In this document: positions 3,450-16,663 of the stretch, piece by piece
Layout: the number at the start of each line of letters is the position of its first letter
Position numbering within the stretch: the stretch's first letter is position 1
Origin: Candidatus Dormiibacterota bacterium
Lineage (GTDB): Bacteria > Chloroflexota > Dormibacteria > Aeolococcales > Aeolococcaceae
DNA length: 64,000 nucleotides
NCBI GenBank assembly: GCA_963718525.1
Contig: OY970355.1
Span: forward strand, 2,464,001-2,528,000
Reading direction: 5' to 3'
Made by a program: the position numbers and the translations under genes
Notes under the pieces: model-generated
Told to the model about the DNA's origin: nothing
What the model saw: only the letters and a program-made list of their open reading frames with translations
Database searches by the model: none

Positions 3450-3599
3450 CTAAACAGTTGCGACTCCGTTCGGTGCGCGAGTCCACGGCCAGCCCGACGC
3501 CGGCGGAATCGCGAGCCCTCGCTGATGCTCGGTTTTGACCAGCTGCCAGCCGCCTTCATGTACCGACCAGTAGTGGCGATGACACAGGAGCACCACATT
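3450..3599 (-). pseudogene. C-terminal half of the interrupted DUF222/HNH endonuclease gene
   Basis: Minus strand reads NVVLLCHRHYWSVHEGGWQLV...ATV*, the classic HNH C-terminal motif. It joins in frame to ...GGNTDLE at 15766. Confidence 0.85.
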
Positions 3600-3624
3600 G
3601 TTCGTTAGTCGCTAATATGACCCC
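3598..3624. repeat. Left attachment junction: TT core plus 25-bp attP arm
   Basis: TT-GTTCGTTAGTCGCTAATATGACCCC. The arm is an imperfect inverted repeat (19/24) of the arm at 12621-12645. Confidence 0.8.
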
Positions 3625-3626
3625 CA

Positions 3627-5024
3627 GTGGAGCCTCGCGCCGCAGCCATCTACGCTCGCATCAGCAGTGATGTAGAGGGCTCAGGCCTTGGCGTCGGTCG
3701 CCAGCTCGCCGACTGTCGCGCCTTGGCGAAGAGCCTAGGGTGGACAGTCGCCCAGGAATACGTCGACAACGATCTCTCTGCCTATACGGGCAAGGAGCGA
3801 CCCGCCTACGTGCAGATGCTCGCGGATCTTCACGAGGGCATCCGCGACGCCGTCCTCGTCTACCACCTGGACCAACTCACCCGACGTCCGATCGACCTCG
3901 AACACTTCCTCGCCGTCATTGCAGCCGCACGGGTATCGCACGTTCGCTTCGTGGCGAGCGGTATGGATCTCGCCACGGGCGATGGCTACCTCATGGCCCG
4001 GATGCTGGCCGCCTTCGCCGCCGAGGAGTCCACCGCGAAGAGCCGACGCGTCAGACGGAAGCTCGACGATGTCGCGGCGGCCGGAAGACCACACGGCGGG
4101 TATCAACGACCATTCGGCTACGAGTCGGACAAGATCACGGTCCGCGAAAGCGAAGCCGCGGTCGTCCGCCAGATCGTTGCTCGCTTCACCGCCGGCGAAA
4201 GCTTGCGGTCCCTCTGTCAGTGGCTTGACGAACAGGGGGTGCGCACCGTCAGCGGGAATCGCTGGCGTAGCACAACGCTCCGAGCCATCCTGACGTCCGG
4301 GCGTATCGCTGGTCTCCGCGACCATCGTGGACAGGTCGTCGCGTCCGCCGTTTGGCACGGCCTCATCACGCTCCCGGACCGCGACCGTGTTCTCGCTCGT
4401 TTCGCGGAAATGAAACTCTCGAAACGTCGGGCCCCGCAGCGCTACCTCCTCTCCGGCATGCTGCGCTGCGGTCGATGCAACGGCACCTTGTTTGCTTCAC
4501 CACGCACTCGGACTCGACGACGTTACGTCTGTCTCTCCGGACCCGACCATGGCGGCTGCGGTCGGATTACCGTTACTGCGGCGCCGGTCGAGCAGTTGAT
4601 TGCTGATGCCGTGCTCTACCGCCTCGATACGCCCGAGCTTGCCGACGCCCTCGCCGGACGCGCCGCTGCAGACGAGCGAGCCGCGCTCGTCGCCGATGTT
4701 CTCGCCGCGGATCGCGCTCAGCTGGAAGAACTGACGGACCTGTACGCGTCAAAGCAGATTACCGCCACGGAATGGCTCCGAGCCAGGCGTGGGATCGAGG
4801 ACCGCATCCATGCCGGGGAAGCTCAACTCTCTCGCGCCACCCACACCGAGGCACTAATCGGGCTGCACCGCGGCGACGCGCTTCGCGCTCAGTGGCGCGA
4901 CCTTCCTCTCAGCCGCAAGGTTGCCATCGTCCGTGCCCTGGTCGATCACGCCACCGTTGGCCCGGGGATCAGAGGGGCTCAGCGGCTCGATCCGAACCGT
5001 GTCGAGGCAGTCTGGCGACTCTGA
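3627..5024 (+). CDS. Large serine recombinase (integrase)
   Basis: YARIS catalytic motif, EYVDNDLSA, recombinase domain (PFGY, GESLRSL, WRSTTLRAIL), zinc ribbon CGRC...YVC...C, coiled coil. Confidence 0.95.
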   Translation: MEPRAAAIYARISSDVEGSGLGVGRQLADCRALAKSLGWTVAQEYVDNDLSAYTGKERPAYVQMLADLHEGIRDAVLVYHLDQLTRRPIDLEHFLAVIAAARVSHVRFVASGMDLATGDGYLMARMLAAFAAEESTAKSRRVRRKLDDVAAAGRPHGGYQRPFGYESDKITVRESEAAVVRQIVARFTAGESLRSLCQWLDEQGVRTVSGNRWRSTTLRAILTSGRIAGLRDHRGQVVASAVWHGLITLPDRDRVLARFAEMKLSKRRAPQRYLLSGMLRCGRCNGTLFASPRTRTRRRYVCLSGPDHGGCGRITVTAAPVEQLIADAVLYRLDTPELADALAGRAAADERAALVADVLAADRAQLEELTDLYASKQITATEWLRARRGIEDRIHAGEAQLSRATHTEALIGLHRGDALRAQWRDLPLSRKVAIVRALVDHATVGPGIRGAQRLDPNRVEAVWRL

Positions 5025-5201
5025 TCGGACCGGCATGCGCGCTCGGCCGCCCTGACATGCGGACGAGCGCGCTGCGTCTCCGAGCAGCGCGACAACCTGT
5101 CCGATAACGAGGCGGTCGATCACCTTGACCTCGATACCTTGCGCTGCGCACGAGCGTCGTGCCCACGCCTCCGCGTTGGCCCGTGAGAGGAAGCTCTTCA
5201 C
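4854..5201 (-). CDS. Small hypothetical protein coupled to rep (candidate directionality factor)
   Basis: GTG at 5201 overlaps the rep TGA (GTGA). Converges on and overlaps the integrase 3' end. Confidence 0.45.
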   Translation of the reverse strand: MKSFLSRANAEAWARRSCAAQGIEVKVIDRLVIGQVVALLGDAARSSACQGGRARMPVRSESPDCLDTVRIEPLSPSDPRANGGVIDQGTDDGNLAAERKVAPLSAKRVAAVQPD

Positions 5202-5329
5202 GAGCCGCCCCGCCACTCAGCGAGCATCCGACGGTGGCGGGCGCGCAAACGTGGACGCGCTGCCTCAATAGCCTCAAACAGCGGCTCATAGCCCGTGTAT
5301 TCGACGACTGCCGCGAGCGTTGGGCCGTA
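5198..5329 (-). pseudogene. C-terminal part of the Rep_trans gene cut off by IS256
   Basis: YGPTLAAVVEY...EWRGGS* joins in frame to ...NVAQQ (8031) once the IS and one TSD copy are removed. Confidence 0.85.
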
Positions 5330-14774: not shown

Positions 14775-15076
14775 GGCAACTCGAAACCGTTGTCAGCGGT
14801 CGGTCAGTGTCCGGCGGCGTTGAGCAGGCGTGACCTCCAACCTCTGCCGAAGGCAGCCGTCAGCTTCCGCCGTCCGGGTCAAGGTGGAGGGAAGTACGGA
14901 TCGTTCATCGGGGCCATCTCGCTACAGCGGATTGTTGGGTCGATGGAATTGTACGCACCGGAGGGGGGTTCAAAACAAGTTACCCGGAACGGCCGAGGGT
15001 TGGCAACATCGGGCCCGGTTCGAAACCGCGGATCGACGGCGGGGTATTCTCGCCTCCCAACCCACAAGATCGGCGC

Positions 15077-15484
15077 CTAGCCTTTGCCCTCAGGGTCGTA
15101 GTGCTTCTTGATGGCAGGGTGATCGGTCATCAGTTGCTTCAGCACAGGCTTTTCGAGCGCGACCGAGAACGAATCCAACGCCTTCTGGGCCGTGTCCAGC
15201 TTGAGTTCGCTCCTTTGCAACGCGTCCGCGGTTTGAGACTTGTCCTTAGTAGCCGCTTCGGCTGTCTTGTCGGCCGCATTCGCTCGTTGGGTTGCTTGCT
15301 CGTTTGTCTGTCGAGTAAAGAAATACGTGATGAACGACCCCGTCACCACCCCTACGAGCCCAGAGAGTAGCGTCCAGATCTTGACCGCATCATCAACTGA
15401 GTACCGAAGGATCGCCGCAATCGTAATGCTGGCAACGGCTGCCAAGATCCCTACTCCAACAACCGCGGAGGCGGTTGGATTCAT
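15077..15484 (-). CDS. Hypothetical two-TM protein with coiled-coil tail
   Basis: ATG at 15484 after GGAGGG. Two hydrophobic helices ending TYFF, then a heptad-like region. Confidence 0.65.
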   Translation of the reverse strand: MNPTASAVVGVGILAAVASITIAAILRYSVDDAVKIWTLLSGLVGVVTGSFITYFFTRQTNEQATQRANAADKTAEAATKDKSQTADALQRSELKLDTAQKALDSFSVALEKPVLKQLMTDHPAIKKHYDPEGKG

Positions 15485-15738
15485 GAGTGTGGCCCTCCCT
15501 AACTGATCGAATGGAGCGATTAGATCACCCCATCCGCCGGGTTGTCCACCCGCTCGGGGGCCGGGTGGTGCCTCAGCCGCCGGCCGGTCGCGGGCCGCCT
15601 CCAACGTGAGGTGCGGCCCGGCACAGCTTGGGCTTGGGCGTCGCCCCGGAGCTGGACAGCCCGGGGTTCAGGTCCGTCAGCGATTCATGCGGTAACGAGG
15701 CGCTTCACAGCGTCGACACTGCTTTCCCCCGTTCGGTC

Positions 15739-15765
15739 GGGGTTGTATTAACGATGGACGAGGTT
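15739..15765. repeat. attP-arm copy C plus TT core (junction with the HNH gene N-terminal half)
   Basis: GGGGTTGTATTAACGATGGACGAGG-TT-CTCGAGGTCGG. The HNH sequence stops exactly here. Confidence 0.8.
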
Positions 15766-16663
15766 CTCGAGGTCGGTATTGCCGCCGTGGCTCTAGTGCA
15801 CCACGTGGTGGCCTTCGGTCCATGCGGGGCGGACGGTCGCATCCCGGGAAGCGGCAGCCCTGGTCGCGAAGAACCAGCGCGGTGCGGAGGTGCGCCGGGA
15901 TCGTCCGCGTGGCCCGTCCCACCGAGAGCGGCAGTGGACGTGTGCTCCCGGCCAATGGCGGCAAGATCGACCAGCGCGTCGGCCCTGCGCTGGGACGCCA
16001 ACCGCTCTTCGCCCCGACTCATCCCGTGACTGAGCGCATCGATCGCCGTCTTCACCAGCGCGCCGCCCTCGGCGTCGAGCTCACCACGGAGGACGAACAC
16101 GCCCCCATAGGTCTGCTCGCACTCGAACCAGCGGCGTTCGTGGGCGCAGTTGTCATCGGCGAGCACCCCATCGGGGTCGAGGCGCAGCCGGGTGGCCTGG
16201 GTGAGCATGCGCACGGCCCGGGGCTCAAACGTCTCCGCCGCGCCCACCAGGACGTGCTCGAAGGGCGCCAGCTGCGCCACGCCGACATCCTCGGCGAGGT
16301 GGGCGATCATGGTCACGTTGCTGAAGGAGGCGCGCCCGGTACGATCGCTGTCGAGCGTGGCCGGCAGCTCTCCCAGGGTCCGGGCCAGGTGGACGCGGTG
16401 GCGGCCGCCTTCACGGTCATCCCGCAGGCACGTCGCAGCCAGGACACCGTGCTCCCCCCGCCATCGGCCTGGGCGCCCCGCTCGCGATGAAAGCGGTGCA
16501 GACGGCGGATGGACTCGGCCTCCAGCCGATCGATCGCCCGGCGGATGTCGACGATGTCCTGACCCAGGGCGTGCGTCGAGAAGCCGTCGATGGACTCTCC
16601 GACGAGGGTATCGACCGCCTCACGCAGACGGTCTCGCGCATCCGGTATGGCGAACGCTTCCAT
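15764..16663 (-). pseudogene. DUF222 / HNH endonuclease (13E12-repeat-like), N-terminal part
   Basis: SWLRRACG, GELDAEGG, QRRADALVDL, GRATRTIP...RDQGCRFPGC, HHVVH*SHGGNTDLEN. Carries frameshifts, an internal deletion and a W-to-stop change. Confidence 0.9.

Follow-up and report, generated by a model that had tools for sequence, protein, structure and literature searches.

The locus described here raises the question of what placed a 12.2-kb stretch of DNA within one conserved codon of a DUF222/HNH gene, and whether that DNA is one element or several. The sequence analysed, hereafter the window, is a 64,000-nucleotide stretch of a Candidatus Dormiibacterota genome (contig OY970355.1, positions 2,464,001 to 2,528,000); positions given alone are those of the window, whilst those marked G000 refer to the genome as a whole. 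The insertion lies at one conserved codon of a minus-strand DUF222/HNH gene in this soil bacterium (Dormibacterota), and the insert (3600-15765) consists of three stacked modules, denoted A, B1 and B2, each ending in a conserved 25-base P arm followed by the dinucleotide TT. We consider it very probable that this three-module stack was laid down at the asparagine codon of the HNH motif, in a multicopy DUF222/HNH gene, by site-specific recombination catalysed by a large serine recombinase; the crossover is at TT 3598-3599, the same TT as that at 15764-15765.

The split target gene and its junctions

Serine-integrase attP sites are imperfect inverted repeats of approximately 50 bp around a non-palindromic central dinucleotide, and the attL and attR junctions share only that dinucleotide. 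The features at the two outer junctions are as follows.

3450-3599, minus strand: 3′ fragment of the DUF222/HNH gene, with the Asn codon at 3597-3599 and a TAG stop at 3450-3452; collinear with paralogue p3
3573-3597: B arm, within the 3′ fragment, left of the TT
3598-3599, no strand: crossover dinucleotide TT at attL, the sole letters common to both sides of the empty-site joint (n = 2)
3600-3624, plus strand: P′ arm of module A, matching the reverse complement of 12621-12645 at 19 of 25 bases
15739 onwards: outer attR, with P arm 15739-15763, TT 15764-15765 and B′ from 15766
15766-16663, minus strand: 5′ part of the DUF222/HNH gene, a pseudogene (PF02720, 2.7e-10), its first base being the start of B′

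Read on the minus strand, the HNH motif runs across the junction, with the right flank giving ...HHVVH*SHGGNTDLE and the left flank continuing as N-VVLLCHRHYWSVHEGGW (N-VVLLCHRH...). The flanks are collinear with the intact paralogue p3, in which G000 1860552-1860667 corresponds to window 15766-15882 and G000 1860668-1860795 to window 3475-3599 (gap or overlap, 0), and also with HNH genes of relatives (for example G012:C7 142004-142130 and 142135-142250). The genome holds five DUF222 matches. The 5′ part of the target spans three reading frames and contains an in-frame TAG at 15792-15794 (within HHVVH*SHGG); this copy is a pseudogene.

The arms at the ends of module A are organised around the TT in the manner of an attachment site, with a 19 of 25 inverted match between P′ and the inner P arm (12621-12645) and a joint sharing two letters. 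For the outer P arm (15739-15763) the inverted match with P′ drops to 17 of 25. A set of 200,000 random genome positions gave a mean inverted match of 6.9 of 25, matches of at least 19 occurring at a frequency of 5e-6 and of at least 17 at 7e-5. The same TT directly follows all 13 P arms of the genome, and the distal motif of the P′ arm, CTAATATGACC, is also present in the P′ arms of relatives. On the coding strand the P arm encodes N-L-V-H-R-stop.

The two halves of the split gene differ in their nearest paralogue. Bases 15961-16730 of the 5′ side are 99% identical to paralogue p1 (770 bp), falling to 88% next to the junction, whilst the translation of the 3′ fragment (N-VVLLCHRHYWSVHEGGW...) resembles the C-terminal end of paralogue p4 (55% amino acid identity), unlike the 3′ fragment belonging to p1 itself. 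The difference suggests gene conversion or else a hybrid site, produced by recombination between two occupied HNH genes. Further HNH remnants lie nearby on the left. At 2098-2190, 1.4 kb left of the island, there is an additional attR-type scar on the minus strand, comprising a decayed P-arm end, TT and an HNH 5′ relic (...GGATTLD-N); approximately 1 kb left of the window start, at G000:C1:2462960-2463120, a short p1-type HNH relic with B arm, TT and B′ unbroken is an unoccupied attB-like site.

The empty site and other states of the locus

A search of sequencing runs with the left flank gave 20 runs, four of which hold at least 86% of its words; all four belong to one soil study, and one run is marked as a possible source of the window DNA. 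Contigs of runs X2-X5 were compared with window positions 1800-17800. An X2 contig (3606 bp, depth 17.9) and an X3 contig (451 bp, depth 18.8) each join 3597 to 15764, skipping 12,166 bases, with two shared letters and, on the right side, no mismatches, which shows the empty site to be present as DNA. An X4 contig (787 bp, depth 7.8) joins 3597 to 12646, skipping 9,048 bases, with three letters that fit either side and no mismatches. Both skipped lengths equal the distances between TTs. The two- to three-letter overlaps are presumably too short to have misled the assembler, whose words are much longer. The depths quoted are word depths, not cell shares, and the forms are not ranked by them.

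Three states of the locus thus exist as DNA in sister samples, namely empty, B1 and B2 only, and A with B1 and B2, and therefore both the whole stack and module A alone have been gained or lost precisely at the TT. The right side of the empty-site contigs covers 15792-15794 and shows that the empty allele has the same TAG; accordingly, the gene was either already broken in the absence of the insert or had decayed by the time the insert was lost. The preliminary description of this DNA had suggested looking for the empty attB in related genomes or in reads. No syntenic empty site was found in 30 related genomes, where the flanks are too poorly conserved and match only paralogous or orthologous HNH genes, but the exact empty site is present in the X2 and X3 contigs.

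A composite of three modules

The boundaries of the modules are set by the P arms and the X4 joint.

3600-12647 (9048 bp, equal to the length skipped in X4): module A, with the integrase, a split rep gene, Old and TIR-TM
12621-12647, plus strand: P arm and TT closing module A; the X4 contig joins 3597 to 12646
12648-13959, plus strand (1312 bp): module B1, with an alpha/beta hydrolase, ending in P arm 13933-13957 and TT
13960-15765, minus strand (1806 bp): module B2, ending in P arm 15739-15763 and TT

The insert could instead be read as a single 12.2-kb element with one attP, the inner P-arm copies being chance or functionless internal repeats. In favour of this account, a clean attL and attR can be read from the outermost junctions by themselves, and all 12,166 bases are gone in X2 and X3. 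However, the three P arms (starting at 12621, 13933 and 15739) are co-oriented and, in a fuzzy search, nearly alike (0-3 differences in 27 bases), the B arm is followed in the X4 contig, with no mismatches, by the sequence just past the first inner TT, P′ fits the inner arm better than the outer one, and the stacked layout is repeated in other genomes. A single element is contradicted by the X4 joint and is, in our judgement, very improbable.

On the composite reading, module A would have entered by recombination between its attP (12621-12645, TT, 3600-3624) and an attB-like site composed of the 3′ half-site of the HNH gene and the left end of B1. Modules B1 and B2 are without a working integrase. 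Neither was found as a whole module in 41 genomes of the genus, in which only the hydrolase gene (92% identical, in G017) and short boundary pieces were matched. The G+C content is 0.585-0.625 across 9300-12900, compared with 0.64-0.72 in the flanks.

These results bear out much of the preliminary description and alter part of it. Its joining of the flanks through TT, which restores the HNH motif at the Asn codon (HGGNTDLE, then N-VVLLCHRH), agrees with the collinearity to p3 and with the empty site in X2 and X3, and the P arm does mimic the target, as it had proposed. The attP that it printed is indeed an imperfect palindrome of 25+2+25 bases (19 of 25), although the printed P arm is that of the inner copy, 12621-12645, which is two bases off 15739-15763. 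Its treatment of the insert as one element does not hold, given the inner P arms and the X4 joint.

The integrase

The gene for the recombinase starts three bases past the P′ arm.

3627-5024, plus strand: large serine recombinase, 465 aa, with Gln at position 83 (PF00239, 8e-26; PF07508, 1.4e-12; PF13408, 2e-10)

The protein has the three-domain layout of large serine recombinases (Resolvase, Recombinase and Zn_ribbon_recom). In a 21-member alignment R11, S13, D82 and R86 are invariant, and position 83 is Arg in 20 of 21 sequences; Gln occurs in the window integrase only, so that the substitution to which the preliminary description drew attention is a real one. A relative that is 94% identical in the alignment has Arg at this position, and Q83 aligns with the Arg of LDRLSR in the catalytic domain of TP901-1 integrase. 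From the D-R-L-x-R motif, Q83 presumably corresponds to R68 of Tn3 resolvase. The catalytic set of that enzyme is given as Y6, R8, S10, D36, R68 and R71, and mutation of any of the six, R68 included, is described as greatly reducing cleavage and recombination (Olorunniji and Stark 2009, PMC2794168).

The window integrase has an incomplete set of catalytic residues, the Arg of the D-R-L-x-R motif being replaced by Gln, and is probably a family member with a disabling substitution. Because Q83 replaces a catalytic Arg and because the rep gene is split by nested insertion sequences (IS), module A is probably non-autonomous in this genome.

A second island and the integrase clade

The genome contains one more integrase by tblastn (G000 1001847-1003244), which is 57% identical to that of the window and has Arg at the position equivalent to 83. 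The second island to which it belongs occupies the same Asn codon of a paralogous HNH gene. At its left end an HNH 3′ fragment, N-LVSLCRPHHRVVHEEGW, is followed by TT (1001807-1001808) and a P′ arm; at its right end, approximately 23.9 kb away, a P arm (1025666-1025690) and TT adjoin paralogue p1, whose frame ends ...GGRTELD-N-LVHR-stop, the same ending as the P-arm-encoded NLVHR-stop. This island also has an inner P arm, at 1024284; its anti-phage genes are HmaA and HmaC, each spread over two frames, and PDC-S54.

Further loci were collected by a scan of genome contigs, which gave ten (in Geodermatophilaceae, Nocardioides, a Frankiales metagenome-assembled genome (MAG), an Acidimicrobiales MAG and a Dormibacteraeota MAG), and by a search of 117 genomes of the family, which gave 38 places in 27 genomes. 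Where the integrase is at least 56% identical to that of the window, an HNH 3′ fragment beginning at the Asn codon lies approximately 30 bases upstream on the opposite strand at 12 of 13 loci (the two of this genome included; HNH tails were called by eye and tblastn, that of L057 by eye only). No such fragment lies beside the integrase at any of the 27 loci at 30-48.5% identity, one of which, L030, comes from a genome (G090) flagged as unpublished. This comparison shows the enzyme clade to be tied to this HNH-gene codon in two phyla, the Dormibacterota and the Actinomycetota.

As to the host, every organism named among the best 120 matches of the window alanine-tRNA ligase is Candidatus Dormibacteraeota or Dormibacteria (up to 86% identity), the jgi entries naming the enzyme only. 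The host is therefore a member of the Dormibacterota, and the integrase clade and its target family are common to that phylum and the Actinomycetota. The proposals that integrases of this clade use multicopy HNH genes as landing pads, and that they do so in a lineage distant from the mycobacteria, are upheld by the second island, by the difference between close and distant loci and by the identity of the host. The preliminary description had also named a finding that would count against it, homologous integrases at unrelated sites; with 12 of 13 close integrases at the HNH codon, its reading survives.

The clade is large, with 1670 homologues at E ≤ 1e-30 among 7999 scored. The best 120 of the 1670 are all at least 59% identical, and none of these 120 carries the name phiRv1 or Rv1586c. 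A prophage reading was tried and rejected, as phage and viral collections gave only distant integrases: 845 matches among 50,697 phage records, all below 60% identity (best 32%), and 19 loci in IMG/VR at 38% identity or less. A sister clade (L029-L033, L052, L054; 43-47% identical) has its own conserved P′ arm with the distal motif ACGCTAATGTACC and adjoins another recurrent, non-HNH sequence.

The recurrence of the codon also bears on whether a recombinase made the split at all. Homologous recombination or gene conversion among HNH paralogues might have done so, as might IS transposition; gene conversion evidently acts here, as seen from the 770 bp of the 5′ part that match p1 at 99% identity, and the island contains copies of IS256 and IS110. 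Against this, the junctions have only TT in common, the ends form an imperfect palindrome with an integrase gene three bases away, the same codon is used at 12 of 13 related loci, and the IS elements lie inside module A with ends of their own. The junction anatomy contradicts an origin of the split without the recombinase, which we regard as extremely unlikely.

Stacks without an integrase

P arms are far more widespread than integrases of this clade. A fuzzy search for the P arm with TT gave the 13 copies in this genome, and a degenerate pattern (at most three mismatches) gave 134 matches in 30 of 42 genomes of the genus, with 0 for the reversed control; only three of the 42 (G000, G017 and G124) hold an integrase at least 56% identical, the assemblies being 61-92% complete. 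At three loci (L105, L107 and L110) stacks of three to four co-oriented arms are flanked by one HNH 3′ fragment and one 5′ part and contain no integrase, whilst at G017:C165 a co-oriented stack stands behind an integrase. Within this genome, four co-oriented copies of the P arm with TT lie beside the intact p3 (G000:C1:1862090-1873966). Relics of HNH 5′ and 3′ parts accompany them at 1871883-1871942 and 1873844-1873966, and tblastn found no integrase in that region.

What follows the P arms is informative on how such stacks arose. At nine of 50 sites the sequence after P arm and TT is the 5′ coding part of an HNH gene; the remaining 41 include 15 that are B′-like and none that is P′-like, as scored with crude weight matrices built from nine and eight sites. 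The inner junctions look like attR-type scars rather than attP-type joints, contrary to what would be expected of simple tandem integration, and that at 13958-13959 has nine B′-like bases and then a truncated recombinase gene.

Such scars would be expected if the locus were the remains of neighbouring HNH genes, each hit once, from which later deletions removed the integrases and most HNH 5′ parts, only module A being recent. The post-P-arm counts favour this account, and so do the 13958-13959 junction, which resembles a deletion scar, the extra HNH relics at 2098-2190 and G000 2462960-2463120, and the different nearest paralogues of the two gene halves. On the other hand, the empty allele joins the outermost B and B′ precisely, and an origin from two genes would need recombinase-mediated excision across the whole stack; stacks of three to four arms are bounded by single HNH 3′ and 5′ halves in at least three other genomes; and the weight matrices are based on few sites. 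We hold this account to be a possible one, if somewhat less than an even prospect.

A more far-reaching form of the stacking account would make the HNH site a platform for serine-recombinase cassettes, an integron analogue with a different enzyme. Here the HNH 3′ half-site would be fixed and the B′-like left ends of modules would re-form an attB-like junction with it; integrase cores such as A would hop in and out, leaving or mobilising small defence or metabolic modules, and stacks would be built in this way and exchanged across Dormibacterota and Actinomycetota. The X4 form shows that module A is placed at a site of this kind, where the 3′ half-site of the HNH gene meets the left end of B1. 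We put it forward tentatively and think it unlikely as a whole.

Several observations weigh against a stack laid down by the recombinase at the HNH codon. No P′ arm is recognisable at the left end of B1 or of B2 (of the 41 post-P-arm junctions, 0 are P′-like), and the arrival of integrase-less modules is therefore unexplained by simple integration. The Q83 integrase may not be, or have been, the active enzyme. The population evidence consists of assembled contigs from one study, which is probably the source of this genome, and thus represents a single campaign and not an independent sample; the contigs show that the forms exist and do not give their frequency or order, and excision is indistinguishable in them from strains that were never occupied. 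The X2 contig differs from the window by five letters and three indels over the 1.8 kb of left flank. No circular junction or backward joint was present among the X2-X5 contigs, a result that is uninformative as contigs drop rare forms. Finally, L028, with a 59% identical integrase, has no adjoining HNH fragment, and L057 has a Ser codon and CT instead of Asn and TT.

Relation to known systems

Composite islands of the SCCmec type in staphylococci are formed by CcrAB serine recombinases at the 3′ end of rlmH/orfX; they include tandem stacks in which some members are recombinase-less and depend on others. The locus resembles them in that a serine recombinase inserts at a conserved gene and that tandem elements are separated by repeated attachment sequences; the tandem modules, the A-less form in X4 and the recombinase-less stacks are all SCC-like. 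It differs in recombinase clade and in target, which here is multicopy, is cut inside its catalytic motif and is inactivated. In the CIME/ICE systems of Streptococcus thermophilus, integrase-less elements are accreted beside an integrative element by tyrosine recombinases acting at identical core repeats. The common features are an integrase-bearing element in tandem with integrase-less modules, which have an attachment sequence in common and are separable by site-specific recombination; the enzyme here is instead a serine recombinase, with a 2-base crossover and asymmetric half-sites.

The pSAM2-type AICEs of actinomycetes combine an integrase with a replication initiator (Rep_trans) and an FtsK/SpoIIIE-like transfer protein. 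Module A likewise pairs its integrase with a Rep_trans rolling-circle initiator, a pairing also present in L065. A Pfam scan of 16 frames in and beside the island gave no FtsK/SpoIIIE-type transfer gene, the integrase is serine-type and not tyrosine-type, and the Rep_trans gene is split; module A is accordingly not assigned to the AICEs. Integrons have the tyrosine recombinase IntI, an attI site and cassettes that end in attC sites. Nor is the locus an integron, since its recombinase is serine-type and its module ends are half-sites of that enzyme's attP; the likeness to integrons is limited to the stacked-module layout.

The closest precedent for the target is phiRv1, which resides in a REP13E12 repeat of Mycobacterium tuberculosis and, according to a review, encodes the serine recombinase Rv1586c; REP13E12 has been equated with HNH endonuclease/DUF222, the 13E12 family being PF02720. 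In both cases an element with a large serine recombinase uses a multicopy DUF222/HNH (13E12) repeat gene, and several sites per genome are thereby offered; the window shows this by a PF02720 match in the 5′ part of the gene and by an HNH motif that spans the junction, and the genome by its five DUF222 matches. The comparison with phiRv1 concerns the target family. No directionality factor, such as one resembling Rv1584c, was identified. The host here belongs to the Dormibacterota, with relatives of the element in the Actinomycetota, and unlike phiRv1 the island is without phage-like genes, its cargo includes anti-phage genes and its modules are stacked. The insertion thus belongs to a known kind, in that DUF222/HNH genes are targeted as by phiRv1, and varies it by its host phylum, its defence genes and its SCC-like stack of modules; what is less ordinary about the finding is the stacks that lack an integrase.

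DUF222 has also been recorded as a target in a systematic survey. In the supplement of Durrant et al. 2022 (PMC10083194), PF02720 (DUF222) is listed for 19 of 1069 clusters of target genes, compared with 1 of 908 background genes (adjusted P 1.4e-3), and PF01844 (HNH) in 8 against 0 (adjusted P 0.047). The main text of that paper, in which the string 'HNH' occurs 0 times, highlights other targets, and no discussion of DUF222, codon-level site, stack or mention of Dormibacterota was found in it. Targeting of the family by large serine recombinases had thus been documented already, which makes the idea less new. Literature searches found no description of the codon-level site or of HNH-gene stacks, although subscription papers and supplement tables may hold more.

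The locus supplies a natural set of attB, attP, attL and attR, in which the empty site has been observed as DNA, for a serine-integrase clade that is large and abundant, and thereby raw material for integrases with a short, conserved, multicopy landing site. DUF222/HNH repeat genes, known recombination hubs in M. tuberculosis, play the role of landing pad in an uncultured soil phylum, and these elements carry anti-phage genes, Old and TIR-TM in the island of the window and Hma with PDC-S54 in the other. How defence islands are assembled is a testable question raised by the stacks without an integrase; current understanding is not overturned.

Contents of the modules

Besides the integrase, module A contains the following.

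5198-5337, minus strand: separated 3′ end of rep, sharing 66% identity (41 aa) with the continuation of the L065 Rep homologue
5338-8031, plus strand: IS256-family element (Transposase_mut, Pfam), with an IS110-family element nested at approximately 6511-7807
8032-8951, minus strand: 5′ part of a rolling-circle replication initiator gene (Rep_trans), cut by the IS (PF02486, 1.4e-27, profile positions 2-150 of 201)
9266-10984, minus strand: OLD-family ATPase/TOPRIM nuclease (Pfam AAA_21 and OLD-like_TOPRIM; PADLOC Old, 3e-21)
11628-12539, minus strand: TIR-domain protein (Pfam TIR_2, 2.6e-8; PADLOC TIR-TM, 1.1e-65)

The last 18 codons of the Rep_trans open frame fall inside the IS. The Rep homologue in L065, which stands beside the closest named integrase, is 57-66% identical. 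A 104-codon frame in module A gave no match. The IS elements have other copies in the genome at 90-99.6% identity, and the nested IS110-family element is missing in X2, X3 and X4 (joints 6510/6511 to 7807/7808). The IS256/IS110 composite as a whole (5338-8031) recurs at G000:C1:2241344-2244037, 95% identical over 2694 bp.

The genes of B1 and B2 are listed below.

12898-13722: alpha/beta hydrolase of B1 (Pfam Abhydrolase_1, 3e-28)
13960-14246, minus strand: decayed N-terminal piece of a serine recombinase of a different clade, in B2 (tblastn with a G107 homologue)
14259-14774, minus strand: DUF4760 gene of B2 (Pfam)
15077-15604, minus strand: membrane protein of B2

The recombinase piece in B2 is 72% identical over 39 aa to the G107 homologue and contains a stop and frame changes. 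The hydrolase of B1 appears to be a common gene captured in that module. On its own, without the module ends, the hydrolase gene (12898-13722) has contig depth far above that of its surroundings in X3 and X5; several contigs diverge from the window just before its first base, leaving loose ends at 12898, and the copy in G017:C18 is the 92% identical one.

Left of the island, a 226-codon frame at 2693-3373 has no Pfam match. Four copies of this frame (83-90% DNA identity) lie within approximately 15 kb of G008:C4 (186.9-202 kb), and P arm copies at 190568, 193176 and 195175 of that contig lie among them.

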